Of a stretch of 47,877 nucleotides of DNA, positions 12,142 to 44,306 are shown piece after piece. Below the pieces are notes generated by a model that did no database searches, was not told the DNA's origin, and saw nothing but the letters and a program-made list of their open reading frames with translations. The number at the start of each line of letters is the position of its first letter. Within the stretch, counting starts at the first letter, position 1. This stretch comes from Candidatus Woesearchaeota archaeon (GTDB lineage: Archaea; Nanobdellota; Nanobdellia; Woesearchaeales; GW2011-AR9), in assembly GCA_018303045.1 (NCBI GenBank), contig JAGVYX010000035.1:1-47877 (forward strand). The letters are read 5' to 3'. Position numbers and translations under genes: made by a program.

Positions 12142-12612
12142 CTATTTTATGTCTTCTAAGCCTTTTCTTTCCCTAATTCCCTGTTGTCTTTTCTTGGCTT
12201 CTAATATCTCCTTTAAAGTTGCATCAAATTGATTTTGACCTTCTGCCACAACGGTTTGTCCTATTCCGTCACTACTAAGATATTCAACTCTTGTTCTATC
12301 CTTTTTGTCAACAACTATTCTATCCACCATAAGGTCTCCGTTATGGTCAATGTAGGTTATATTTTTTGCAAAGTGTCCAGCTTCTTCAGTATCAGGTACT
12401 GCAATACTAAGAACATTAGATTTCTGAAATGGAAGAGAACCCGTAGATTGGTCAAAATACACTAAATTGCCCCCTACTCGTAAACCCTCACATTCGTATC
12501 TAGAATTATCTTGACTTCGTACATATTTGATTAAACCATATCCGCCCGCCAATAATGGCACTGTCGCAGCGGCAACTAAAAGTTTTTGTGTAAATGACAT
12601 TTTGATCACCAA
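12142..12612 (-). CDS. Hypothetical membrane-anchored/secreted protein
   Basis: N-terminal hydrophobic segment QKLLVAAATVPLLAGGYGL. No catalytic motif recognised. The start may be the internal MSFTQK. Confidence 0.45.
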   Translation of the reverse strand: MVIKMSFTQKLLVAAATVPLLAGGYGLIKYVRSQDNSRYECEGLRVGGNLVYFDQSTGSLPFQKSNVLSIAVPDTEEAGHFAKNITYIDHNGDLMVDRIVVDKKDRTRVEYLSSDGIGQTVVAEGQNQFDATLKEILEAKKRQQGIRERKGLEDIK

Positions 12613-13215
12613 TGATATTGAAAATCCAACTACTATATAACTCTTTCTATTTTTATTATTGACACGTAGTGAATTATTTACGGAGTGGGAGCTGGATTGG
12701 ATTTTTAGCCCTATAATGTAATAAATAAGGTGACAAAAATGTTCGTCTAATGTATATTAGGCGAAGTTTAACCGATAATTTGAACGAAACATCGTTATAA
12801 ACCAGCTTTGGTTAATTATCTGCCAAGCTAAAAGCCAAACTTTGTGAAATGCCACAGACAACTAAGAATTAGCGTTTTCCATCAAAAACCATCACTGGAT
12901 ATCCATTAGGTAAATAATGGCTTCTTTTTTTCTCCTTACTGATCTAAAATCTAATCTTTCTGCCATTTTCAATAAATTAAGGAAGTTCTACTATCTAAAT
13001 CTTCACAATTTGATTACCCCAGAATGGTAAATTCTCTGGCGCGTCGAAAATCTACAAGATTCAATCTAAGCTTAAAACTTTTAGCGACAATAATCGCTCA
13101 ATTTAGGGTTAAAACTTTTAAGAAAAGATTAAAGTTACTGGCAACAACATTATCAATGTAAACAAAAATTGATTAAATGACAGAAACCAGATGATTTGAT
13201 AAACGACTAAACTAA

Positions 13216-13977
13216 TTAAGCAGCCTTTTTTCTAACCATTTCTCTTTTTAATTCTTCTTTATGTTCCAGTTGCAGCTCAGCCTTGCTTTTGAATAACTTT
13301 ACCACGCCATAACTTTGTTTAGTTGAAGTAGGATATAATTTCTTTACTTCAGCAGTAATTTGCTTCTTTGCTTCCTGAACCTTCTTCTTGGACGAGGATA
13401 AGATTTTTTCCTGGCGATATTGATTATAAGCCTGCAAATAAATTCTAAACCTTAACTCCAGAGCGGAAATAATTTCTTCGGCAATCGCCGACAGTCTTTG
13501 CTGCATTTTATTGGTAGCATAAGCTGAGTAGCCATGTTCAGATTTTTGCACGGCCATCCAACTTAACCAGAGCTTATCCCTCTTTTCCTGAGCTTCCTCC
13601 AAAATTTCCCAGAGTTCTATAATTTCCTTATCTTTAACGTCCAGGCGCAGCTTTCCACTGGATGATTTATCTTGGTTATAGTCTTCAAAATTCCGGATCA
13701 GCAATTGCCGGCCTAGATTTAGAAGCTGCTGAAAGTTGGGCATTAATTCAGCCCGCAGTTTTAACTGATAGCGCGTTTTTGTTAATGGATCGGCTTCAGC
13801 CAATTTCTTCTGTATTTTAGGAAATAAACTAAACCCCGATGCTTTCAAGCTGATTTCGATGGTTAATTTTTTCTGTTGAATAAACTGATCAATTTTCTTC
13901 AACTCCCCAGCCAGCTGAGTTAAGTCTGGATCGTGGAGATTGCTTTTTTTTCCAAAAATAGTAGCCCATAGTCCCAT
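13216..13977 (-). CDS. Hypothetical coiled-coil protein (253 aa)
   Basis: Long heptad-like K/E/Q-rich sequence. It is the last gene of the PAC2 / small membrane protein operon. Confidence 0.5.
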   Translation of the reverse strand: MGLWATIFGKKSNLHDPDLTQLAGELKKIDQFIQQKKLTIEISLKASGFSLFPKIQKKLAEADPLTKTRYQLKLRAELMPNFQQLLNLGRQLLIRNFEDYNQDKSSSGKLRLDVKDKEIIELWEILEEAQEKRDKLWLSWMAVQKSEHGYSAYATNKMQQRLSAIAEEIISALELRFRIYLQAYNQYRQEKILSSSKKKVQEAKKQITAEVKKLYPTSTKQSYGVVKLFKSKAELQLEHKEELKREMVRKKAA

Positions 13978-16327: not shown

Positions 16328-16382
16328 TAGGATTACTATATCCTCCAAATATAATAGTGGCTAAAAATATACTGAAATTCCT

Positions 16383-16464
16383 GATAGTATAATCCTTTGG
16401 CTGATAAAAACTATTTATTTAAGATTATAACTAACTAAGGAATCAGTCAGATATTAACACTGCC
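16383..16464 (-). mobile_element. 82-bp MITE, copy A (inverted relative to copies B and C)
   Basis: Its reverse complement differs from copy C at 3 positions. It is flanked by aaattcct / caattcct, a 7/8 matching 8-bp duplication. Confidence 0.8.
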
Positions 16465-16549
16465 CAATTCCTTAACAATCGAACTAAATTTTGTGAATTT
16501 CATATATACTAAATTGCGCGAAAGGTTTGATTTCTAGGGCAATTTACTA

Positions 16550-17720: not shown

Positions 17721-17830
17721 TATACCAAAAGACTCAAAATTCCGAACAGAATTTTGTGCCTTTTGTATACACGAAAATAACAGATTATATTTTCGGTACT
17801 AAAAATCAATCGTTTATGTCCTTTGGTATA
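17721..17830 (+). mobile_element. TA-flanked MITE (family Z), copy 1
   Basis: Termini tataccaaaagac ... gtcctttggtata match 12/13 as an inverted repeat. The first 49 nt and last 18 nt are identical to the reverse complement of 35750-35843. An uninterrupted version of the flanks lies at 17971-18000. Confidence 0.7.
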
Positions 17831-18013: not shown

Positions 18014-18523
18014 ATGGAGAGATATCTGGTTATTGATCATCTGAAGTTGACTTATGAAGGATTATGCAATGCGCCGGAATTATTCTCTTTAATTCAGGAA
18101 TGGTTTTATGAAAAAGGATGGGACTGGCATGAAAGAACTAATCAGGAAACCACTACTCCGGAAGGAAAGCAGCTTCACCTGATTCTGGAGCCGTATAAAA
18201 ATGTCAGCAATGATCATCGGCTGATGGTCAAAATTACTTTAAATGCCACTAATCTTAAAGATGTGGAAGTGGAATTGGAAGGCAAAACCGTTCATTCGCA
18301 GCAGGGCGTAATCAGAATGATTATTGATGGCTATGTGTTCAGCGATCGGAAAGGCCAATGGGACAGCCGGCCATTCTACTGGTTTTTAGGAATGGTTTTA
18401 GAAAAATATTTTTATAAAGAGCATTTTAGGCGGTTTGAGACCTGGCTGAAAAGCGATGTCAGCGATTTGTATGACCGAATAAAAAGTTATTTGAACACTT
18501 ACAAATATACCTATCAGCATTAA
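18014..18523 (+). CDS. Hypothetical protein, paralog A of a two-member local family
   Basis: It shares motif order with 18727-19296: G.....E...E..G..L.L.L.PYK ... G.VR(I/M) ... W...P..YFL.GV..KY(L/F)Y. Confidence 0.55.
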   Translation: MERYLVIDHLKLTYEGLCNAPELFSLIQEWFYEKGWDWHERTNQETTTPEGKQLHLILEPYKNVSNDHRLMVKITLNATNLKDVEVELEGKTVHSQQGVIRMIIDGYVFSDRKGQWDSRPFYWFLGMVLEKYFYKEHFRRFETWLKSDVSDLYDRIKSYLNTYKYTYQH

Positions 18524-18527
18524 ACAT

Positions 18528-18708
18528 GGATAGCATCAATTTACGAGCGGAACAATCGCTTACTAAAGCGCCTGCGGAAGGGGACGTTCCTTACACGAAA
18601 ATAAACGACGATTTATTTTCGGTACTGAAAATTGATCGCTGTCAATTTTCATGTACGGGAAGGAGCCGCATATAATATTCAGAAGCGCAGAGCGAGTCGA
18701 TGCTATCC
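18528..18708 (+). repeat. Structured element X, copy 1 (candidate ncRNA/leader), carrying a 64-nt nested insert
   Basis: The outer stem ggatagcatc / gatgctatcc is 10 bp and perfect. The interior is homologous to 34220-34343. See findings. Confidence 0.6.
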
Positions 18709-18726
18709 CTGCTGTAGTCATTAAAT

Positions 18727-19296
18727 ATGGATGAAATACAATTTACTCGGGATTTATTGGTCAGCAATAAAGAGCTGGTTTATACTGGTATCTTTAAACT
18801 TGATGACCTATATAAAGATATTAACCGCGTAGTTGAAGCTCGGGGATATACTCAGCGAGAGAAACGATCGGAAGAAGCCGTTGCCGAAGCAGGCAGGAAA
18901 ATATATCTGGAATTAAGGCCCTACAAATTCTTTACGCCGGAGATTAAGCTGCTGATTAAGATTAAAATTGATTTAGGCCCGGTTTCTGAAAGCAAGCATC
19001 AGGGAGAACTGTATCAGCGGGGGGATGTTCGTATTGTCTTGGATGCCTGGTACATGACCAATTATCGGAAGCGCTGGTATAACAAGCCATTAACCTATTT
19101 CCTAAAAGGCGTTATTAACAAGTATCTCTATCAATGGCCGGAAGAAAAAGATTCCCGGGAGATGCTGGTTTCGGATGCGGCGGCAATTTATGCTGTGATT
19201 AAAAAATTATTCCGGACGTATCAGCCGGAAGCTAAGAAATATTCTTCAGAAGAAGAGGTAATCCAAGAAGTGGAGAAGGAGATTGGGAAAGGTTAA
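18727..19296 (+). CDS. Hypothetical protein, paralog B
   Basis: See 18014-18523. It has an added acidic C-terminal tail. Confidence 0.55.
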   Translation: MDEIQFTRDLLVSNKELVYTGIFKLDDLYKDINRVVEARGYTQREKRSEEAVAEAGRKIYLELRPYKFFTPEIKLLIKIKIDLGPVSESKHQGELYQRGDVRIVLDAWYMTNYRKRWYNKPLTYFLKGVINKYLYQWPEEKDSREMLVSDAAAIYAVIKKLFRTYQPEAKKYSSEEEVIQEVEKEIGKG

Positions 19297-24942: not shown

Positions 24943-25217
24943 AGGGGCACGCCCGTGGTCGAATGGCTACAGCCCCAGTTGGTTTAACCCCCGCAGCTTC
25001 TCGGGCTTGCGACCCCAGGAACATAGAGATTGAAGGTTAAGGCTGCTTTCTTCCGAATCTGACCTGATTCCCAGCAAGTCCATCCCCTGGGACAAACCGT
25101 CGGCAAAGACAGCAGGGACCAATGAGACCATGGCAATCCTTCTTTGGGCTTCGGCTCCGTGTAAAGTCCATTCACAGTAACAGCGCAGGACTAGCGCGCC
25201 AGCCTAGCTCTCCCTCG
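24943..25217 (-). ncRNA. Signal recognition particle RNA (archaeal 7S/SRP RNA); ends approximate
   Basis: The minus strand reads CAGGUCAGAUUCGGAAGAAAGCAGC (25066-25042). This is the helix-8 motif, compare E. coli 4.5S CAGGUCAGGUCCGGAAGGAAGCAGC. The 5' domain has GCUAGGCUGG (25207-25198) and GAGCCGAAGCCC (25157-25146), as in archaeal Alu domains. The region is a GC-rich island in AT-rich DNA, and a TATA box lies 21 nt upstream. Confidence 0.8.
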
Positions 25218-25327: not shown

Positions 25328-25409
25328 GGCAGTGTTAATATCTGACTGTTCCCCTAGTTAGTTATAATCTTAAATAAATAGTTTTTATCAGTCAAAGGAT
25401 TACACTATC
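25328..25409 (+). mobile_element. 82-bp MITE, copy B
   Basis: It runs ggcagtgttaatatctgactg...cagtcaaaggattacactatc and is flanked by a perfect 8-bp direct repeat gatgcatc (25320-25327 and 25410-25417). Confidence 0.85.
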
Positions 25410-25554
25410 GATGCATCATCTTCTTTAATAAGGCACTTCTCAGAATCACGGGCTATCGGCAATTTTGTCGGCGGTCTCGCCAGGGGCTTATTTTAAATTC
25501 CAGAAACATTAATTCCATTATATTTAAAAAATAGTTACTCTATTTCTTATTTTA

Positions 25555-28589: not shown

Positions 28590-28646
28590 AATAGCGGAAT
28601 AATTCAGGCACTAGCATCTGGGAGCGGTTTATTCTGAAAATTATTT

Positions 28647-28728
28647 GGTAGTGTTAATATCTGACTGATTCCTTAGTTAGTTATAATCTTAAATAAATAG
28701 TTTTTATCAGTCAAAGGATTACACTATC
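28647..28728 (+). mobile_element. 82-bp MITE, copy C
   Basis: It is flanked by a perfect 8-bp direct repeat aattattt (28639-28646 and 28729-28736). The right repeat contains the stop codon of the gene at 28731-30077. Confidence 0.85.
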
Positions 28729-28730
28729 AA

Positions 28731-30077
28731 TTATTTCCTATACGTTGTAACCTCCTCTGAAGTTAACAATCCTAATTTTTCCAAATATCGGAAGGCCGCT
28801 TTAAACTCCGGTTCCCGGCAGCTTGAAGAAATATCTTTTCTGCTAAAATAAGCCGCCCGATGGGAAAAGAACTCCTTAACTACCGCATCTGTTCCTTCGG
28901 GCAGAAAAGTTGTTTCTGGATGCCCCAGATAAGCGCGCCAGCCATTAAAACTCCTTATCTCCAGATCAGTAAAGTTGCCGGATGCGGAAATTGCTGACAG
29001 AACTCGCTCCGGCCACCTTTCTTCAGCATGAATCTGAGAAAGGTGATTTATAATTAAAGGCGCGTTTTTCTGATGCGCGGCATGTTCATAAACGTGCTGA
29101 GTCCGTTCTCTTGCGCCAAGAAAGATTGCCGGAATAAGTTTCTTGGACTTATTTACCGCAAAAGACAGAACCTCTCGATAATTGTTATCTTTAAATACAT
29201 TCATTGGCCTGGTTGTTCTGCTGTCCAACGGCAAGTCATGTTCCGGATAGATTAAAAAAACATTGCCTGGAACTAATTCTAAATAAGCTGGAGCAGTAAA
29301 CAAACGAGCGTCATTTTGCGGCTCAAAAAAATACCAGTTCTCAGGGTTATTAAATTCTCTCACGGAAGTGAAACTAAGAGGGGTATCGGCCAGCCACACT
29401 GCCGCTACAGAATGCGGCCGGGGGCGTTTTCTGGATTCAGTTCCGTCAGCATTTATTTCAATCATTTCCGGCCGGATAATTTCTACTTCACGCGCTGGAA
29501 GAAAAAATTTTCTTGGAACCAAAGGAATATCGTAACGGCTGTGTTCTGGCGTGTAAGACAACTTTTCGCCGGCGCGGCCGTAAGCCCACATAAACTTTCT
29601 GGTAAAATGGCGGCAGGTCATGGGGTTGTCTTCATCAATGCTTTCCACCCGGTCAGCAATGCATTTTCTAAATTCCGAATCATCAATTCCTTTAAAATTC
29701 TCAACACGACAGGGCTTATAATCCGGATCAGCAGGATCATCATAAAGATAATGTTCCTTATCGGTCATGTCCTGGGAAATAATCAGGCTGGTAAACCTCT
29801 CGCGCGCCGCTTTAGTCTTCAGCGCCGGCCAGATTTTTCGATGTTTCGGCCAGAGGCTTACCGCTCCGGCATACTTTTCCTTATCTACTGTCGCTGAATT
29901 AAGTATGCTGGATAGTTCGCGCTCTTCTGCTGGATCAAAGACATATTCCGGCGAGCGGCAGGCAGATGACCGGCAGCCGGCGCCAATCAAACTAACCACT
30001 GAAGCCACAAACTCTCTCCGTCCAAGAGTCGGACTAGCGGAAATTTTCTCCAGCTTCTGAATGATCTTCTCCAGCAT
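28731..30077 (-). CDS. Putative Tat/lipobox lipoprotein with a transglutaminase-like (papain-fold) Cys-His-Asp core
   Basis: LGRREFVASVVSLIGAGC combines a twin-Arg with a lipobox-like Cys. MTCRHFTRKFMWAYGRAG, PHSVAAVWL and NWYFFEPQND are spaced like the TGase-core C, H and D motifs. The gene is visibly more GC-rich than its neighbours, with long antisense ORFs. Confidence 0.4.
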   Translation of the reverse strand: MLEKIIQKLEKISASPTLGRREFVASVVSLIGAGCRSSACRSPEYVFDPAEERELSSILNSATVDKEKYAGAVSLWPKHRKIWPALKTKAARERFTSLIISQDMTDKEHYLYDDPADPDYKPCRVENFKGIDDSEFRKCIADRVESIDEDNPMTCRHFTRKFMWAYGRAGEKLSYTPEHSRYDIPLVPRKFFLPAREVEIIRPEMIEINADGTESRKRPRPHSVAAVWLADTPLSFTSVREFNNPENWYFFEPQNDARLFTAPAYLELVPGNVFLIYPEHDLPLDSRTTRPMNVFKDNNYREVLSFAVNKSKKLIPAIFLGARERTQHVYEHAAHQKNAPLIINHLSQIHAEERWPERVLSAISASGNFTDLEIRSFNGWRAYLGHPETTFLPEGTDAVVKEFFSHRAAYFSRKDISSSCREPEFKAAFRYLEKLGLLTSEEVTTYRK

Positions 30078-30162
30078 TTAGGGCAAGAAGTAAATAGATT
30101 ATTTAAGATTTATTTAAGTGTTAAGTAAAATTTCTAACTATCCGGCCGCCGCCATAATCTAA

Positions 30163-30262
30163 ATACATTATTCAAATACAAAGAATGATACATTATCCGA
30201 ATACTAAAAATAATACATTATCCAAATACAAAGAATAATACATTATCCAAATACTAAAAATA
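30163..30262. repeat. 4 x 25-bp tandem repeat (alternating A/B units, i.e. 2 x 50 bp)
   Basis: The four units are atacattattcaaatacaaagaatg, atacattatccgaatactaaaaata, atacattatccaaatacaaagaata and atacattatccaaatactaaaaata. Confidence 0.9.
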
Positions 30263-30264
30263 AT

Positions 30265-31230
30265 TCATCTTCTGGATTTCAACAGCGTCTTGGGATCTCT
30301 GGCTCTTACATAAACTAATTTATTCGAGTGCAGGTTCTGTTGATTATCTGAACAGCGCCCTTCGTAATTAAAAAGCTGGCTGCAGACATCTAAACCGTAA
30401 ATTGTATCCACCCGGCCGTATTGCGTTGGGAAAAAAGCCTGATCCTCCAGGCACTGATTAAATCTGCGGGAAACGGAAACTTTAGAATCTCCTCTTTTAA
30501 CCTGATAAAAAAAATCAGACCCGGCAGTTTTAAAATCACTCTTGCAGGACTCAACCCTTGATCTTAATTCTGGATTAGAATCTACCCCTTTTTCGTAATC
30601 TTTAATTTCCGCTTCCTCTCTTTCCTTCTGCAATTTTTGTTCATGAGCAGATTCTACTGCATAAGCCCCATTAAGCAAAACGCTAATCTGTTCTGAGCTT
30701 AATTCAGTCTCTTTAAGAACATCCATTAAATTGAAATCAGGATAACCGTCAAAAAATCCACCGCTTCCCAGAAATTTAGCCGCATAGACTATCTCCACGC
30801 CTTCCCCTCCATCAACTAACTGGTTATCATGCATTACTCTTAACTTGATATAACCTGGGCATTCCAGCTGAATCAATGAATCAGGCACTCCTTGGTTATT
30901 AGACGTATAATGCGCGGATTGCTTTCTGGAATCAATAGCTTCCAAAATTAAATCCCCATATCTAAGCTTATCTCCGGTGTTCATGCTTCCGAACAAATTA
31001 TCTAACTTTCCATTTTTAGTCAGGTACCCAGAGTTTAACCTAATCTCTTTAGAATCGGACCTTTCTTTAGATTCAGACGCTGCCGGCTCCGGATCGCACC
31101 AAAGGTGTTTAGCAGTTAAACGGTCAAAAGCAGTATTAGGGTAGAATAACTGATAGATTGCGGCAAGACCCATGCCAATAGCTCCCCAAGTTGGCGCTTT
31201 TTCAGTTAATTTGGCGGTTAGATTTACCAT
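30265..31230 (-). CDS. Hypothetical membrane-anchored protein (321 aa)
   Basis: The N-terminal hydrophobic segment is WGAIGMGLAAIYQLF. A weak LysM-like YQVKRGDSKVSVSRRF is not enough for a call. Confidence 0.45.
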   Translation of the reverse strand: MVNLTAKLTEKAPTWGAIGMGLAAIYQLFYPNTAFDRLTAKHLWCDPEPAASESKERSDSKEIRLNSGYLTKNGKLDNLFGSMNTGDKLRYGDLILEAIDSRKQSAHYTSNNQGVPDSLIQLECPGYIKLRVMHDNQLVDGGEGVEIVYAAKFLGSGGFFDGYPDFNLMDVLKETELSSEQISVLLNGAYAVESAHEQKLQKEREEAEIKDYEKGVDSNPELRSRVESCKSDFKTAGSDFFYQVKRGDSKVSVSRRFNQCLEDQAFFPTQYGRVDTIYGLDVCSQLFNYEGRCSDNQQNLHSNKLVYVRARDPKTLLKSRR

Positions 31231-31288: not shown

Positions 31289-32257
31289 TTACCGTCCTTC
31301 AGGAAATACATTAAATAGCATCTGAAACTCCCTAATAAATCTCTGGGCAATTTCTTCATCATGAATAATCAGCATATTTTCATCATTTCTTTTATCGCCG
31401 CCGTTGGTGGGGTTAAAAGAACCGGTTATTACTGTTTGGCCATCAATGATAAATACTTTGTGATGCATATTATGGGGATTCAAATCTTTGATTACCTCAA
31501 CACCATTATTCTTCAAGCGTTCAAATTGGGAATACTCGCTGATTTGTCTCGTTTCCATAACACCTTTAACTGGAATTTCATCTAAATTCTTTATTAATAG
31601 AACATCGGCAATTTCTTCGCTGGTGAACGAAAAAGCCATAAAGTAAATAGATTCTTCAGCTGTTTTTAACTCTTCAACAACCTGCTGAATACAATGGTCA
31701 TCAGGGCAGAAATAATTCTCGATTTTAATGCCGGATAAAGTTATCTCTGGATCTTTAACGGCAGTTCCTTTCTTAAAAATTCCCCGCCATAATTCCTGGA
31801 ATTCATCTTCATAATTTTCTGCTAAATACTGTGATTGAATGAGCAGCAAATTATTATTGTTTTTATAAGCATCATTAAAGGTTGGATTCATTGATCCGGT
31901 GGAAACTTTCTCCCCGTCAATGATGCAAAACTTATTGTGCATTAAACCGGACTTATCAGCTTTAACAAAGGATTTAGGAAATTGTTTATAGTAATCATCA
32001 TCGGTTACAATCTTAACTTCCATTGTTTTAGCCTTCTCTAACAGCTTTTCTTTTAATGATTCCAATTCTACTTCGAATAGAGCGCAATGAATAGATTCCT
32101 GCGCTGAATCTAAGAAAGCAATAAATTGCTGTTCGCAATTATCCTGAGGACAAAAATAAAGATCAATCGTTCCTTCTTCTATGGGATCATTATCTTCAGA
32201 AACCAGAAAACCAGCTACGATTAATACTGCCAGAAAACAAAATAAGATTATTTTCAT
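31289..32257 (-). CDS. Secreted phospholipase D-superfamily protein (Nuc-like nuclease/phosphodiesterase) with two HKD motifs
   Basis: HNKFCIIDGEKVSTGSMNPT and HHKVFIIDGQTVITGSFNPT are the two HKD motifs. Each half is preceded by YFCPxDxCxQQ. The N-terminal signal is MKIILFCFLAVLIVAGFLV. Confidence 0.85.
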   Translation of the reverse strand: MKIILFCFLAVLIVAGFLVSEDNDPIEEGTIDLYFCPQDNCEQQFIAFLDSAQESIHCALFEVELESLKEKLLEKAKTMEVKIVTDDDYYKQFPKSFVKADKSGLMHNKFCIIDGEKVSTGSMNPTFNDAYKNNNNLLLIQSQYLAENYEDEFQELWRGIFKKGTAVKDPEITLSGIKIENYFCPDDHCIQQVVEELKTAEESIYFMAFSFTSEEIADVLLIKNLDEIPVKGVMETRQISEYSQFERLKNNGVEVIKDLNPHNMHHKVFIIDGQTVITGSFNPTNGGDKRNDENMLIIHDEEIAQRFIREFQMLFNVFPEGR

Positions 32258-32580
32258 GATTTATCTTTCGGAGCAAGTTCTTGAATTGTTTCTTCTAACT
32301 TGGAAAATCGGCCTTTAGCCCAAAAATCCAGTTGAGCTTCCCGTAAAGCATTTTTATATCTTAGGTTTTCTTTAAGATGAACAATTACTAAGGCTCCAAT
32401 GCTGACTATAGCCCCTGGAATGCTGTCATAATAAATGCTTAAACCGGAACCAATAATGCCGCCTGCTGACAATAAGCCATCAACCAGAGAATCATTCCCC
32501 CGGCAGTTGCAGTAAGCATCCAAGATATATTTACTGGAAGAAGCTTTAACTGGCGCTTCAGGCAGTTGTTCTGTTCCCAT
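32254..32580 (-). CDS. Small membrane protein, translationally coupled to the PLD gene
   Basis: Its stop overlaps the PLD start (ATGA). It has central Gly-rich hydrophobic segments. Confidence 0.5.
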   Translation of the reverse strand: MGTEQLPEAPVKASSSKYILDAYCNCRGNDSLVDGLLSAGGIIGSGLSIYYDSIPGAIVSIGALVIVHLKENLRYKNALREAQLDFWAKGRFSKLEETIQELAPKDKS

Positions 32581-32712
32581 CGGCTAAAGAATGATAGGCC
32601 TAATTTAAAAAGATTGTTTAACTAAAAACAAAAAAAGAATGTATCTTGGGTTAATGATTAAAAGTTGAAAAAAACCAAAAATATATAATCTTTTTTCAGT
32701 TAATAAGCAAAT

Positions 32713-33720: not shown

Positions 33721-34113
33721 TTACTTTTCAAACTTAGACGAATCATCTTTATGCTTCAATCTAAATTTCCTAGCATTTTTCTCATTAACAAAACGATATA
33801 ACTTGCCATTAATTTCCGCTTCCACCACTTCATCCTCATCCATTAATGGCTCGCCCGTCAAGGCATCTTTGCCTAACTGCCCCCCATCGCTAGCGCCTTC
33901 GGCAAATCCTTCCTCCCATGGTTCAATTTCATCATCTTCCGCCAAAGTTTTGCGGCCTTCTTCAGTTAAGGGATCTACTTCATGCTGGCCCTGCCTGATT
34001 TCCTGCAATAATTTTTCCTCAGTCTCCGATTTGCCGATGCCTTGTTCTTCTTCAGGGTAAAGATCTCGTCCAGATAAATCTTCTTCAGGAATAACTTTCT
34101 TCTTTCGTCCCAT
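33721..34113 (-). CDS. Hypothetical acidic protein (130 aa)
   Basis: ORF only. A TATA-like tttttaaa (minus strand) lies 20-30 nt upstream. Confidence 0.45.
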   Translation of the reverse strand: MGRKKKVIPEEDLSGRDLYPEEEQGIGKSETEEKLLQEIRQGQHEVDPLTEEGRKTLAEDDEIEPWEEGFAEGASDGGQLGKDALTGEPLMDEDEVVEAEINGKLYRFVNEKNARKFRLKHKDDSSKFEK

Positions 34114-34143
34114 AACTTAATTAACTGTTCGCAAGTTTAAAAA

Positions 34144-34183
34144 GATTGCTATCATGGATATGGGATTGCTATCATAGATATAG
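34144..34183. repeat. 2 x 20-bp direct repeat (gattgctatcatggatatgg / gattgctatcatagatatag) between two divergent TATA boxes
   Basis: 18/20 identical, head to tail. Confidence 0.8.
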
Positions 34184-34219
34184 AAATGTATAAAAAATCC
34201 GGGTGTTTTTCTAATAAAT

Positions 34220-34343
34220 CAGAGCCGCCGTTAAATTACGAGCGATTAATCGCTTTATACTGCGTATGCGGGAAGGGATGGTTCCTACGGAAGGGTACCG
34301 CATTAGTCCTAACTTAGCACAAAGCGAGTCTAACGCGGCTCTG
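34220..34343 (+). repeat. Structured element X, copy 2 (candidate ncRNA/leader)
   Basis: The outer stem is cagagccgc(c)gtta / taacgcggctctg. The interior is homologous to 18528-18708. A TATA-like tataaaaa at 34189-34196 lies 24 nt upstream. Confidence 0.6.
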
Positions 34344-34391
34344 AAAAAGAATTATTAGAAAAACTCAAAAATCTGAAGCAAGTTATAAATT

Positions 34392-35144
34392 ATGAGCCTA
34401 AGCTCAGTGTTATGGTCGGAATTTAAGTTTGTTGCAGCTCAAATAAAAAATATTCCGTTATTGCTGGAAAGCCGGGAAGCGCTGATTCCTAGGAAGGAAG
34501 CTAAAGGCGTTTCCATCTACCACGGTTTTGCCGCCAACAATTTTTATTTTCATGACCTTATCAACCGGTTAGAGCAGGAAGGATACTCTGTTCGCGCTCC
34601 CAATTATCGCACTTGGCTAAATATGAATGAAATAGTAAATAAACAGGCCCAGGCTCTAGAACAGATTGTCCAGAGTTCTCAGCAAAAAGAAAGCCTAATT
34701 GGCCACAGCCAGGGCGGTTTAATTGCCGTGCGCTTGGCTCAGTTATATCCAGAATTAGTGGATACAGTCATTTCTCTAGGCGCGCCATTTCAAGGAACTA
34801 GAATGGTTAGGCTAGTTTCTTTCTGCGCTGCTGGCCAGCAGATGCTGCCCGGAAGCGATTTTCTGGAACAAATGGCTGAAACGCCTTTGCCGGCCAATGT
34901 TGTTTTTTATAATATCTACAGCCTTAACGATCATTTAATAATCCCGGCTAAAAATTCTTTGCTCTACAGCGATCTAGCCAGACTTAAGAGAACAGAAGCT
35001 TATAGAACAGAAGCTTATAGAACAGAAGCTTATGATAGGATGCAGGTATACAATTGTCCAGCGCCAGAAGAGATTGGCCACTCCAGATTAATTACTTTGC
35101 ATGAAATGATGATAAAAATGTTAAAACAAACACCGGAACTCTAA
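34392..35144 (+). CDS. Alpha/beta hydrolase (lipase/esterase-like)
   Basis: The nucleophile elbow is LIGHSQGGLIAV, and the C-terminal EEIGHSRL is a candidate His. Confidence 0.7.
   Translation: MSLSSVLWSEFKFVAAQIKNIPLLLESREALIPRKEAKGVSIYHGFAANNFYFHDLINRLEQEGYSVRAPNYRTWLNMNEIVNKQAQALEQIVQSSQQKESLIGHSQGGLIAVRLAQLYPELVDTVISLGAPFQGTRMVRLVSFCAAGQQMLPGSDFLEQMAETPLPANVVFYNIYSLNDHLIIPAKNSLLYSDLARLKRTEAYRTEAYRTEAYDRMQVYNCPAPEEIGHSRLITLHEMMIKMLKQTPEL
34989..35033 (+). repeat. 3 x 15-bp perfect in-frame tandem repeat (agaacagaagcttat; encodes RTEAY x3) inside the hydrolase gene
   Basis: Exact copies at 34989, 35004 and 35019. Confidence 0.95.
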
Positions 35145-35145
35145 A

Positions 35146-35742
35146 TTACAAATAAATTCTCATTAACACGATCACCGTCCCAGCAATTAAGGGCACCACC
35201 AAATTATCATCTAATGTATTTCTGTTAAAATCTATTTGTATAACTTCAGCTGCCATCGCCGCAAAACTGGCTAAAAAAGCTTCCGTAGGCGAAACAAAAA
35301 AGATCGCTCCGCAAAATCCAGCGATTATTCCCGCCAACGTGCCTTCAAACAGTTTTCGGCTCTTTCCATTAAAGATATTTTTCAATCGGCCAATTCCGCT
35401 GCCTACCAAGTGGCTAACCGAATCACCAAAAGTAAGAATCATAATTGCCGCATAAGCGATATCCGGTTCAAACAATTTTATGGAAAGCAAAACTCCCATA
35501 AAAAAGAAAATCAAGCCTTTGCCAGGGAATGTTTTTTTAACTTCCTCCCGTTCCAGATGGTTAAGAAAAAAGCTAAACCCAGGCAGCCAGATTCTCTTGC
35601 TTAAAATACTGGCCAGGATGCCCAGAATGATTAACAAAAATAGGGCAAAAGATGATAGAATCTGATAATAAATTAAGGCTAAAGTTATTACGCCAATAAG
35701 AATATGCAGGAATTTGCGGCAGGCTTCGGCTTTGGTTAACAT
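35146..35742 (-). CDS. Polyprenol (dolichol) kinase / CdsA-superfamily CTP-dependent membrane enzyme
   Basis: Polytopic membrane protein with FGDSVSHLVGSGIGR...KLFEGTLAG, the CTP-transferase-1 family signature. Confidence 0.6.
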   Translation of the reverse strand: MLTKAEACRKFLHILIGVITLALIYYQILSSFALFLLIILGILASILSKRIWLPGFSFFLNHLEREEVKKTFPGKGLIFFFMGVLLSIKLFEPDIAYAAIMILTFGDSVSHLVGSGIGRLKNIFNGKSRKLFEGTLAGIIAGFCGAIFFVSPTEAFLASFAAMAAEVIQIDFNRNTLDDNLVVPLIAGTVIVLMRIYL

Positions 35743-35749
35743 TTGGATT

Positions 35750-35843
35750 TATACCAAAGGACATAAATTTTCGTAAAAATTTAAGCCCTTTGTATATACA
35801 AAAGGCACAAAATTCTGTTCGGAATTTTGAGTCTTTTGGTATA
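35750..35843 (-). mobile_element. TA-flanked MITE (family Z), copy 2
   Basis: The reverse complement matches copy 1 exactly over 49 nt at one end and 18 nt at the other. The central part differs. It lies 8 nt upstream of the start at 35742. Confidence 0.7.
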
Positions 35844-40034: not shown

Positions 40035-40060
40035 AAAAAATTAAATTGTTATTCAAAATT

Positions 40061-40232
40061 CTTTAAAGTTTTCCAAGCAGCAATAACGAATTAAGAGGTT
40101 GGCAGTTCTTAGAATCATAATCAGGAAAATACTTTACCGCTTATTAATTTAAAGTTTTCTAAGCAGCAATAACGAATTAAGAGGTTGGCAGTTCTTAGAA
40201 TCATAATCAGGAAAATACTTTACCGCTTATTA
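40061..40232. repeat. 2 x 86-bp tandem duplication (1 mismatch) derived from the 3' end of an M23-peptidase-like gene
   Basis: 40061-40146 and 40147-40232. The minus strand of each unit reads ...YFPDYDSKNCQPLNSLLLLGKL*, compare the real M23 C-terminus ...YYQKRAPLNPLLLLRKL* at 41532. Confidence 0.9.
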
Positions 40233-40339
40233 ATACTGGCAGGAAGGCCTAGAATAGTAGGCTAATATCCTCTTGAATGGGAAAAAAAATACAAAGCTTT
40301 ATATATTATCGTCATATTTTATATGACAGGCGATATAAA

Positions 40340-40930
40340 ATGTATGACAAGACCGAAATTAGGATTTTGGAACAAATTTATCTTAATCCGGGGATCCATA
40401 AGAGAGAGCTTTCTAAACAGCTTAAATTAGGAATGCCCTCCATAGATTGCGGGCTTAAAAAAATAAATCAGTTAATTCAGCAGAAAAAGTCAGGGAATCA
40501 GATTAATTATTTCTTGGATTACTCCAAAGAAGCGCTTATACCATCGCTAAATACTGTTGAGCATTCCAGATTTGAAAGATTTCCAGCTAAAGTAAGATTG
40601 TCAGTAACCGATTTCTTAAGGGAATTAAAAGATAAACCTGTAATTGCTCTTATTTTTGGTTCTTATGCAAGCGGCACTTATACTAAGAACTCAGATATTG
40701 ACATTTTGTTAGTTTTTCAGAAAATTGAAGATTCTAAAGAAATTGAGAATACTGCTAAAAAAATAAGCATGAAAACAAACACGCAATTAAATCCAGTTTA
40801 TCTTAGCTACCAAGAATTCAAACAATCATTCCATAATCCAACCAATGAATTTTTCAAAAAGCTTAAGAAAGACAAGATAATTGCCGTTGGAATTGAATGG
40901 TGGAGGCAATTAATAGATGAAGAAGCCTGA
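40340..40930 (+). CDS. wHTH-fused minimal nucleotidyltransferase (MNT), antitoxin-type partner of HEPN
   Basis: ALIFGSYASGTYTKNSDIDILLVF is the GS-x9-D-x-D motif. The N-terminal ILEQIYLNPGIHKRELSKQL is the wHTH. The track ORF starts at 40277, and I prefer the ATG at 40340. Confidence 0.7.
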   Translation: MYDKTEIRILEQIYLNPGIHKRELSKQLKLGMPSIDCGLKKINQLIQQKKSGNQINYFLDYSKEALIPSLNTVEHSRFERFPAKVRLSVTDFLRELKDKPVIALIFGSYASGTYTKNSDIDILLVFQKIEDSKEIENTAKKISMKTNTQLNPVYLSYQEFKQSFHNPTNEFFKKLKKDKIIAVGIEWWRQLIDEEA

Positions 40931-41462
40931 TTGGAAGCTTTGGCTAAATGATAAAACAGAATGTAAGTTTTGGATGGATAATTATATCCGGAAAAAGATT
41001 CTTAAGAAAAGTTCAAATGAATCAAGATTGCATCTAAAAAGAACAGATCATAATTTAACTTTCGCTAATTGGATTATTGAAAAACATAAAGATGAAATTC
41101 CTGATGTTTTTGGCGACGATAATTTTTATGATTGGGTAATTAGTATTTATTACTATGCCATCTATCATGCTGCTCTTGCTCTTTTGAGTAAAGAAGGATT
41201 TACTTCTAAAAATCATTCTGCTACATTGGCTTTTCTAATTTATCACCACCATCATTCGCAGAAAGCGCTGGAGAAGGAAGATGTTGAGTTAATCGCTAGT
41301 TCTTTGGATAGGGAAGATATTGAAATTCTCGGCGTTTCCAAAGAATTGAGAGAAAAGGCCAGTTATGGCGTTCACGAATCTTTCGAGAAGAAATTAGCTG
41401 AACAGGTTAGGAAAGAGGCAGTTGATTTTGCGAATAAGATTAAGTTGCTGTTGAAATCATAA
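40917..41462 (+). CDS. HEPN-domain protein (toxin-type partner of MNT)
   Basis: YDWVISIYYYAIYHAALALLSKEGFTSKNHSATLAFL is typical of Pfam HEPN helices 1-2. It overlaps the MNT gene by 14 nt. Confidence 0.7.
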   Translation: MKKPDWKLWLNDKTECKFWMDNYIRKKILKKSSNESRLHLKRTDHNLTFANWIIEKHKDEIPDVFGDDNFYDWVISIYYYAIYHAALALLSKEGFTSKNHSATLAFLIYHHHHSQKALEKEDVELIASSLDREDIEILGVSKELREKASYGVHESFEKKLAEQVRKEAVDFANKIKLLLKS

Positions 41463-41531
41463 AAAGATAATTTCTCGGAAAACTGCGAAAGCCATAGCTT
41501 TTCATAGCTTTTGATTGTTTCTCAAAATTCT

Positions 41532-42191
41532 TTAAAGTTTTCTAAGCAGCAATAAGGGGTTGAGAGGAGCGCGTTTTTGATAATACTCATTAACAGTTCT
41601 CGGTTTATTTGGAATATAATAACATTCTAAATGTAAATGATTATAAGTCCGGCCATAAACTTTCCTTACATCTTTAGGAACAGCTATTTGTTCTGGCAAT
41701 CGCGAAATCCAGGGGGCTACTCTGCCCACAACCATATCACGATAAACCTGATCTTGGTTCTCCCAGCGCAAGACCGGATAACTTTCTGGCAAGAGTATAC
41801 CGGATGTATCTAAATGAGCCAGAATACAAAGCAATCCCAGCTTTTCGGAATAAACTCCCACATTCATCAAATCAGCAGTCCTGGGATCGGTTTGATGAAA
41901 AACTGCCTTTCCACGAATCGGAGAAACTACTTTTGTTCCTGCTGCGACTTGAAGGTCTAAACCCCGGTGTCGAGAATTTTTATCAGGGTCGTTATAATCC
42001 GGCTCGTTGAAATAACCAGCCAAGTGAATGTTAGGCGTATCTAAATCAATCGGCCAGCGCAAGGAATGCTTAAATTGTTGCAAAGCTTCCGGTAAAGTTC
42101 CGCCTAAATGCGATCCATATTCTCTGGATCGGCCAATAAAGTTAGATTTTCTGCAGCTTTTAATAATTTCAGATAAAGTTGATATTAACAT
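41532..42191 (-). CDS. M23-family (LytM/lysostaphin-type) metallopeptidase
   Basis: HRGLDLQVAAGTKVVSPIRGKAVF is H-x3-D plus a G..V....G.V strand, and NHLHLE is H-x-H. Confidence 0.75.
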   Translation of the reverse strand: MLISTLSEIIKSCRKSNFIGRSREYGSHLGGTLPEALQQFKHSLRWPIDLDTPNIHLAGYFNEPDYNDPDKNSRHRGLDLQVAAGTKVVSPIRGKAVFHQTDPRTADLMNVGVYSEKLGLLCILAHLDTSGILLPESYPVLRWENQDQVYRDMVVGRVAPWISRLPEQIAVPKDVRKVYGRTYNHLHLECYYIPNKPRTVNEYYQKRAPLNPLLLLRKL

Positions 42192-42264: not shown

Positions 42265-42332
42265 TTATTGCTGTTTGGCCATCAATGATAAATACTTTGT
42301 GATGCATATTATGGGGATTCAAATCTTTGATT
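42265..42332 (-). pseudogene. 68-bp fragment copied from the PLD gene (second HKD motif)
   Basis: 67/68 identical to 31426-31493. The minus strand reads IKDLNPHNMHHKVFIIDGQTA. Confidence 0.9.
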
Positions 42333-44206: not shown

Positions 44207-44306
44207 TTCTCAAACCCTAGACTAACTTCTCAAACCCTAGACTAACTTCTCAAACCCTAGACTAACTTCTCAAACCCTAGACTAACTTCTCAAACCCTAA
44301 ACTAAC
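44207..44306. repeat. 5 x 20-bp tandem repeat (ttctcaaaccctagactaac) in a divergent intergenic region
   Basis: Four perfect units plus a fifth with one g->a change. Confidence 0.95.

Follow-up and report, generated by a model that had tools for sequence, protein, structure and literature searches.

Here, we describe a small family of noncoding sequences in a contig of Candidatus Woesearchaeota archaeon (JAGVYX010000035.1:1-47,877; this 47,877-nucleotide stretch is referred to as the window) and in related contigs. We propose that its members are nonautonomous mobile elements resembling miniature transposable elements with inverted repeats (MITEs), located in the intergenic regions of a Nanoarchaeota lineage of the Woesearchaeota type from groundwater. 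Mobility of a MITE-like kind is likely, the description as a whole is probable with somewhat less assurance, and a role of the conserved core at the RNA level is possible, with the balance leaning against it. Direct support was obtained for the family itself, for a fold with compensated changes, for insertion polymorphism, flanking duplications, and nesting, and for constraint on the core. The window, which encodes ribosomal protein L15e, holds two copies, copy 1 (18528-18708) and copy 2 (34220-34343), both on the plus strand. Orthologous or related contigs, designated by L-numbers (L092, L095, L097, L099, L103, L105, L126, and others), were fetched via neighboring proteins. They derive from groundwater metagenomes, and the named homologs of L15e and of a neighboring protein belong to Nanoarchaeota/Woesearchaeota bins.

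A shared core with a compensated fold

An initial annotation of the window had noticed by eye that these two stretches share an interior of roughly 70% identity. Both were found where it had placed them, with a common core of ~95 nt and a mean column identity of 68% in a MAFFT alignment, which also recovered the blocks named there (TTACGAGCG, AATCGCTT, GCGnnTGCGG, AAGGG, GTTCCT, CCGCAT, and AGCGAGTC). Within the window, the octamer AGCGAGTC is confined to copies 1 and 2. The outer helices are indeed unrelated in sequence and each self-paired, with 10 perfect base pairs in copy 1 (GGATAGCATC/GATGCTATCC) and 13 bp with a single bulged C in copy 2 (CAGAGCCGC(C)GTTA/TAACGCGGCTCTG), and the copies end, as reported, 18 nt and 48 nt upstream of an ATG (starts at 18727 and 34392). 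The extra stretch in copy 1 is real, but it measures 62 nt (18595-18656) instead of 64 nt. Covariance model R1 was built on copy 1, its ortholog in L092, and copy 2, after the 62-nt insert and one bulge had been taken out and one base added for register. Run over the related loci, it detected additional copies at E values of 1e-5 to 1e-12; the similarity of copies 1 and 2 is thus not a matter of chance.

The comparison set comprised six sequences at five loci, namely copy 1, its ortholog, copy 2, and copies A, B, and C. The ortholog (L092 8064-8183) comes from a species whose 189-amino-acid protein is 67% identical to that encoded next to copy 1. Paralogs A (L092 2533-2650; 57.5 bits with model R1) and B (L092 7059-7177; 35 bits) lie on the minus strand of the same contig. 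Copy C (L103 8913-9172) was detected by BLAST with the flanks of B; its outer parts are those of B, its interior is different, and it carries a long additional insertion. The copies range from 119 to 260 nt and are dispersed over five intergenic loci. Their neighbor genes are unrelated and code for a 189-amino-acid protein of unknown function, an alpha/beta hydrolase, a PhoU-like protein, and an H+-pyrophosphatase; copy C is antisense to both adjoining genes. A further match of the model (window 32518-32651; 19.8 bits) was rejected as a copy, since it overlaps the start of an open reading frame (ORF), lacks every core motif, and agrees only in the closing helix and TATTTAC.

RNAalifold predicted for the six sequences, about four of which are independent, a single extended rod-like hairpin consisting, from the outside inward, of helices P1, P1b, P1c, P3, and P5. 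P1 has 8 to 13 bp in every copy and comes in four unrelated sequences. An asymmetric loop, with an AAUUU-type strand opposite 1 to 2 nt, lies between P1 and P1b (ACGAGC/GCGAGU), which is composed of two Watson-Crick pairs, a tandem G.A, and two further pairs. All six sequences keep the tandem G.A unchanged; the first P1b pair appears as A-U, G.U, or G-C, and two others change from G-C to A-U and from C-G to G-C. P1c is a 3-bp helix (GCU/AGC). Four copies share a P3 of UGCGG/CCGCA, in place of which B has AGCUA/UAGUU and C has GCCGAG/CUCGGC. P5 forms the apical hairpin (YYCC-loop-GGRR, with a UUACG-type loop). Fifteen of the 25 pairs are changed on both sides, and 89% of the cells are paired, compared with 74% in shuffled alignments and 33 to 41% when the partners were slid; none of 500 shuffles reached the observed values. 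Across the six sequences, compensated pairing was kept in the outer helix, for which it had been proposed, and in the internal helices alike.

The fold leaves room for alternatives. The local hairpin GAGCG/CGCTT (P2), to which the initial annotation had drawn attention, can form and is compensated in copy B, but RNAalifold did not select it, and the competing long-range P1b (ACGAGC/GCGAGT) is better supported comparatively. P2 and P1b may conceivably switch. The UUCC tract, too, has two possible partners, upstream (P4) or downstream (P5), and the alternative pairings P2/P1b and P4/P5 could serve as a switch. Compared with shuffled sequences, copies 1 and 2 fold better on the plus strand (z = -5.1 and -2.6, respectively) and about equally so on the minus strand (z = -4.9 and -3.4), as palindromic DNA would be expected to do. 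The GC content of the core is 45 to 51%, versus 38.9% for the whole window.

Insertion polymorphism and flanking duplications

The 169- and 189-amino-acid genes flanking copy 1 are 43, 2, and 2 bp apart in L095, L097, and L099, which represent less closely related organisms than L092. In the window, the element lies between direct repeats that are identical at 13 of 14 positions, a score reached by 5 of 2000 shuffles, corresponding to a duplication of 10 to 14 bp (Table 1). Each repeat consists of a stop codon, two bases, and ATGGAT, a junction that element-free relatives possess once. Copy 1 thus appears to have landed in a 2-nt gap between stop and start codons, duplicating the junction, and would now be an intercistronic insert in an operon; given where it landed, it must be transcribed within this operon. 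The duplicated ATG gives rise to a spurious ORF of 49 amino acids. A small protein encoded by this ORF, the only one in the element, was discarded as an explanation, since its ATG is ATA in the L092 ortholog and its frame is shifted in copy 2. Sequestration of the start codon by the 3' strand of P1 was likewise rejected, as only 5 to 6 bp could form.

The gap that holds copy 2 measures 278 bp in the window, compared with 83 bp in L105 and 85 bp in L126. L126, which lies on the same contig as L135 and comes from the population of the window, shows 100% identity to the window from ~35260 rightward and encodes an identical MutS protein. Its allele and that of the window agree as far as the TATA box GTATAAAAAA and once more beginning with the ATG; the intervening segment measures 193 bp in the window and 20 bp in L126. 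The element-free allele contains AAAAAGATC once only, and in the window AAAAATC is found on both sides of the unit as a candidate duplication. Copy 2 seems to have inserted downstream of the TATA box of the hydrolase gene and ahead of its start codon; provided that transcription still starts from the old promoter, it would make up the bulk of the 5' leader of the hydrolase mRNA. Both copies end just upstream of start codons because the insertion sites, marked by the duplications, include or adjoin start codons.

Two side observations concern the surroundings of copy 2. Across window positions 33880-35250, L126/L135 carry a diverged, element-free allele with 86 to 96% identity over a 130-amino-acid gene, the copy 2 site, and the hydrolase gene, and this pattern has the appearance of a recombination tract. 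A 20-bp tandem duplication (34144-34183; GATTGCTATCAT GGATATGG / GATTGCTATCAT AGATATAG) lies upstream of the TATA box in the window and is single in L126.

At copy B, CTTCCGACAG occurs on both sides (9 to 10 bp), adjoining a perfect 15-bp inverted repeat; copy A has AAAAAGA on both sides (7 bp) around a 17-bp inverted repeat; and no flanking duplication was seen at copy C. Direct repeats of 7 to 14 bp thus accompany copies 1, 2, A, and B, or four of the five loci. Copies 2, A, B, and C carry outer inverted repeats of 14 to 17 bp, which are of three unrelated types and shared only between B and C.

Table 1. Positions in the window of copies 1 and 2, their helices, and associated repeats
Feature	Position	Strand	Remarks
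Copy 1, bounded by closing helix P1	18528-18708	+	Identical sequence in L089 full-length model match, 124.8 bits
Copy 1, left direct repeat CATTAAACATGGAT	18518-18531	+	Contains stop codon of 169-amino-acid gene and duplicated ATGGAT; overlaps first 4 nt of P1
Copy 1, right direct repeat CATTAAATATGGAT	18719-18732	+	Contains real start codon (18727) of 189-amino-acid gene
Copy 1, P1 5' strand GGATAGCATC	18528-18537	+	Pairs with 18699-18708, 10/10 Watson-Crick
Copy 1, P1 3' strand GATGCTATCC	18699-18708	+	
Copy 1, P1b 5' strand ACGAGC	18543-18548	+	Pairs with 18692-18697: A-U, C-G, G.A, A.G, G-C, C-G
Copy 1, P1b 3' strand GCGAGT	18692-18697	+	Within conserved AGCGAGTC block
Copy 1, alternative hairpin P2 GAGCG-GAACAAT-CGCTT	18545-18561	+	Mutually exclusive with P1b
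Copy 1, apical domain	18573-18670	+	P3 TGCGG 18573-18577 / CCGCA 18666-18670
Copy 1, within P3: purine bulge AAGGGGACG and P5			P5 TTCC (18587-18590) / GGAA (18658-18661)
Nested 62-nt hairpin module	18595-18656	+	In P5 loop of copy 1
Partial second copy of 62-nt hairpin module	17768-17806	+	Local alignment, 48 columns
Copy 2, inserted unit	34200-34366	+	Outer inverted repeat GTTTTTCTAATAAAT (34205-34219) / ATTATTAGAAAAAC (34351-34364) around P1-closed core
Copy 2, left direct repeat (candidate) AAAAATC	34193-34199	+	Directly after TATA box GTATAAAAAA; boundaries tentative
Copy 2, right direct repeat (candidate) AAAAATC	34367-34373	+	
Copy 2, bounded by P1	34220-34343	+	CAGAGCCGCCGTTA 34220-34233 / TAACGCGGCTCTG 34331-34343; model 109.2 bits
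Copy 2, core	34238-34329	+	P1b ACGAGC 34238-34243 / GCGAGT 34324-34329
Copy 2, P3 and P5		+	P3 ATGCGG 34266-34271 / CCGCAT 34298-34303; P5 TTCC 34282-34285 / GGAA 34289-34292

A probable MITE-like element and competing explanations

With MITEs, the family shares small noncoding units, inverted repeats in each copy, target duplications of a length typical of MITEs or slightly greater at four of the five loci, dispersal, and presence/absence polymorphism (element-free sites in L095, L097, L099, L105, and L126). The likeness to prokaryotic MITEs, including those of DPANN/Woesearchaea, extends to the intergenic multicopy state and the nesting of copies; variable termini, a conserved covarying interior, one constrained ortholog, and the lack of an identified partner transposon set the family apart. 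The initial annotation had regarded target-site duplications together with conserved termini as the mark of a MITE: the duplications are there, whereas termini conserved throughout the family are not. Its suggestion of a dedicated cis-acting 5' leader was not borne out, as the insertion is missing from equivalent sites in relatives and in a near-identical strain, direct repeats flank the copies, neighbor genes are unrelated, and one copy is antisense to both neighbors. In a published survey, a Woesearchaea genome was among the most MITE-dense archaeal genomes (PMC11602168).

In the proposed anatomy, a unit would consist of the ~95-nt core, inverted repeats peculiar to each copy (P1, joined in some cases by an outer P0), and a target duplication of 7 to 14 bp. 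The closing helix may differ from copy to copy because pairing and not sequence is kept there, and also because the same core would sit in different terminal-repeat shells. Mobilization would occur in trans by a DDE transposase encoded elsewhere. Beside copy A, a degraded transposase gene (L092 2710-3224) has an IS1/IS1595-type zinc-binding N terminus (34.3 bits, above the cut-off) and, after a frameshift, a DDE/rve domain of which only the C-terminal end is left, the catalytic middle being absent; the ends could not be matched. Candidate terminal sequences for a mobilizing insertion sequence are GGCTCTGTAGAAAGT or GTACGTATTAAGTC.

Selection seems to act on the core in at least one place. Copy 1 and its ortholog in L092 agree at ~90% of positions (88% in a calculation whose cut was slightly out of place), compared with 50 to 62% at third codon positions of the flanking genes and 25 to 57% in the intergenic DNA upstream of the operon. 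Since this identity exceeds that of unconstrained sites, the core is under constraint. The differences cluster in two variable linkers; none falls in P1b, P3, P5, the purine bulge, or the AGAGCGAGUC block on the 3' side. Recent recombination or transfer was rejected as a source of the similarity: identity is 75 to 90% throughout the upstream gene and drops only in unconstrained DNA, with no raised tract at the element. The core may act in the transcript, forming a stable hairpin module that is GC-rich amid an AT-rich transcriptome, in analogy to Correia and REP elements, and such a role is what selection would preserve at copy 1. Correia (Neisseria), REP/BIME, RUP, BOX, and ERIC are short intergenic repeats that are cotranscribed, form stable mRNA hairpins, are modular, and alter expression or stability of adjacent genes. 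Those elements are bacterial, and their ends or palindrome sequences are conserved, whereas the present family is archaeal, and what is conserved in it is an unbranched rod that bears a tandem G.A as well as a specific apical hairpin.

Several observations weigh against a MITE-like element. The terminal inverted repeats vary between copies and the interior is conserved, the reverse of a normal MITE family served by one transposase, and a single core occurs in at least three types of terminal-repeat shells. The duplications are not uniform in length (7 to 14 bp). Copies 1 and 2 have a spacer of 10 to 23 nt between the closing helix and the right repeat, and in both the duplication overlaps the first bases of P1, which is atypical for a plain MITE. 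Another candidate duplication pair at copy 2 (ATAAATCAGAGCC/ATAAATTATGAGCC) was not significant in a statistical test. Genes for a transposase, an integrase, or a reverse transcriptase are absent from the window, and no autonomous partner with matching ends was found. Strong constraint on the orthologous copy is unexpected for a merely selfish insert. Finally, the fold rests on a small set, six sequences with about four independent ones, and pairing in single-stranded DNA would yield the same covariation signal as pairing in RNA. The flanks of copy 2, moreover, resemble the outer arms of B turned inside out. Unrelated termini, varied shells, the overlap with P1, and these inside-out flanks keep alive the alternative that the core is an RNA carried as cargo.

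According to this alternative, which we regard as unlikely, the core is a new structured noncoding RNA family (a leader, a protein-binding RNA, or a ribozyme) that spread by duplication or hitchhiking in mobile shells, so that the RNA is selected and mobility is secondary. It would account for compensation in the internal helices P1b, P3, and P5 and not in terminal repeats alone, for the invariant tandem G.A and the conserved AAGGG bulge and UUACG loop, for the GC enrichment of the core, for ortholog identity of ~90% against 25 to 62% at unconstrained sites, for the presence of the core within at least three unrelated shells, and for its sense orientation upstream of a gene at four of the five loci. 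The unrelated neighbor genes and the antisense position of copy C argue against it, as do the near-identical strain that lives without copy 2 and the 62-nt insertion tolerated in the conserved loop of copy 1. No expression platform or terminator is visible, and reading of copies 1 and 2 revealed neither a terminator nor a start-codon-sequestering helix longer than 5 to 6 bp.

In addition, the family was restricted to a narrow lineage in every collection searched. No further copies were detected in ~458 kb of related Nanoarchaeota DNA, either by the covariance model or by a signature scan for P1b motifs with a closing helix. Exact-pattern scans with a GC-rich pattern gave 82 matches in a genome-contig collection, all chance and in GC-rich bacteria; the exact pattern gave 18 matches in a viral collection, all chance, and in a metagenome collection one chance match and the already known L092-type copy. 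BLAST against phage and plasmid sequences gave no match. Structured cis-regulatory RNAs, such as riboswitches and ribosomal protein leaders, resemble the element in having a conserved core, a variable compensated closing helix, a hairpin of variable length, and, in two cases, a location upstream of a start codon. They differ in that the present element has no common downstream gene class, expression platform, or Rfam match and shows insertion polymorphism, duplications, and one antisense copy. A riboswitch or leader was rejected for want of a recurrent sense association with one downstream gene class. A more specific and similarly improbable proposal is that the core represents a new structured RNA class, a protein-binding module or small ribozyme, carried as cargo by several unrelated MITE shells in DPANN archaea and maintained by selection on the host once it lay in transcription units, with the invariant tandem G.A and the conserved apical hairpin as its hallmarks.

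Known RNAs were excluded as identities, in agreement with the initial annotation, which had not recognized the element as tRNA, 5S rRNA, or signal recognition particle (SRP) RNA. Rfam 15 gave no match at E<=10 for copies 1 and 2 and none at E<=1 for L092 and L103. A tRNA, including intron-containing or permuted forms, is contradicted by the absence of a cloverleaf and a T-loop and by a negative ARAGORN search. 5S rRNA, RNase P RNA, and an SRP-derived repeat are not matched in Rfam, and the copies show no similarity to the SRP RNA of the window. Known ribozymes (hammerhead, twister, hairpin, HDV-like, and others) gave no Rfam match, and look-alikes of hairpin ribozyme loops misfit the architecture. 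An archaeal bulge-helix-bulge intron is inconsistent with a P1 that is perfect (copy 1) or has one 1-nt bulge (copy 2), and the borders of the 62-nt insert fail as well. A kink-turn (L7Ae site) was rejected, as the tandem G.A of P1b lies between Watson-Crick pairs in every copy with no adjacent bulge, and an integron attC site, as GTTAAAT and GTCTAAC of copy 2 are in reverse order at the inner end of P1 and copy 1 has neither. Two resemblances, to an origin-recognition-box-like dyad (TTCC-N3-5-GGAA) and to the sarcin-ricin loop (UACGAGCGGAAC), are unsupported by context.

Clearly less probable still is a hairpin element that moves as single-stranded DNA in the manner of REPIN/IS200/IS605, with an HUH/Y1 enzyme reading the folded strand, so that covariation and strand asymmetry reflect DNA hairpins. 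Dependence on a folded strand, structure kept over sequence, and strand bias would be common to both. The fold is kept and the sequence of the closing helix is not, a hairpin lies near each end of the nested module, and wobble pairs are concentrated on one strand, mostly the sense strand (~7 versus 2 A.C mismatches), a bias that is suggestive only. TTAC, the target tetranucleotide of IS608, precedes the core (AATTTAC|GAGCG) and the 62-nt module (CCTTAC|ACGAAA), but it is replaced by TTGC, TCGC, or ATGC in other copies. Elements of the REPIN/IS200 class lack target duplications and need a Y1/HUH enzyme, whereas direct repeats of 7 to 14 bp flank the present copies and no TnpA/RAYT-like gene was found in the window or the related loci examined. 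Inert palindromic debris of old insertions, whose similarity and pairing would stem from a common palindromic ancestor, would suit a genome full of repeats, the about equal folding of both strands, and the few sequences, but it is very improbable, since descent would break pairs and not replace them by three (P3) and four (P1) unrelated, fully paired versions, and since the orthologous copies are much more alike than neutral DNA.

Nested repeats, other features of the window, and implications

The 62-nt module in the P5 loop of copy 1 is missing from the L092 ortholog. A partial second copy lies elsewhere in the window (Table 1), and a relative is part of a ~210-nt repeat of L092, whose terminal repeats the outer repeat of copy A resembles. 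This ~210-nt repeat occurs at L092 2285-2505 and 7206-7416 on the minus strand (89% identical), one adjoining A and the other B; its terminal inverted repeats are GTACGTATTAAGTC/GGCTTGATACGTAC, and both the hairpin module and a GGGAGTTCC..GGAA motif occur within it. A 55-nt repeat is present at window positions 17721-17775 and 35789-35843 in inverted orientation (96% complementary). Its first copy runs into the partial module, and its ATTCCGAACAGAAT dyad recalls the TTCC..GGAA of the core.

Other repeats are abundant. An intergenic repeat of ~85 to 95 nt occurs at 16374-16468, 25328-25412, and 28643-28737 (93 to 94% identical, one inverted). Intergenic tandem arrays lie at 44207-44306 (20 nt x5), 30162-30286 (25 nt x5), 40045-40233 (86 nt x2, with a third dispersed copy at 41514-41584), and 2692-2777 (43 nt x2). 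A 68-nt duplication with 99% identity (31426-31493 and 42265-42332) has one copy within a phospholipase-D-like gene and its counterpart within a short ORF. In the related contigs, a 105-nt hairpin-containing repeat is 99 to 100% identical among L103 848-952 and 11816-11920, L093 5255-5359, L094 3810-3914, and L092 1-51, which points to a single genome, or two very close ones, as the source of L092 and L103.

Rfam recognizes a single family in the window, an archaeal SRP RNA (24944-25214, minus strand; 99.3 bits versus a gathering score of 96.5). Together with L15e, it identifies the source as archaeal. ARAGORN found no tRNA genes in the 48-kb window, and unusual ones with noncanonical introns were not sought with an archaeal model. 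A nucleotidyltransferase and HEPN gene pair of the toxin-antitoxin type is located at 40277-41462, and ~600 bp (12612-13216) contain no ORF of >= 60 amino acids. In L132, a 115-amino-acid gene following a DEAD-box helicase gene was not called, leaving a gap of ~690 bp (2201-2889) in which the model finds no copy.

DPANN archaea have tiny genomes, and their noncoding RNA and mobile DNA are little known. If the core is only a hairpin serving mobility or stability, the family would be one more unremarkable entry among the prokaryotic MITEs. A conserved covarying interior combined with free termini, however, does not agree with the usual rule that a transposase recognizes the ends of its element. 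Such a pattern points either to an RNA carried as cargo to the benefit of element or host, or to a mobilization process that reads a folded strand. The two copies in the window also provide natural experiments. At copy 1, a translationally coupled operon junction was split by a 190-bp structured insert; at copy 2, a probably leaderless mRNA would have acquired a structured leader of ~170 nt, with the element-free allele persisting in the same population.

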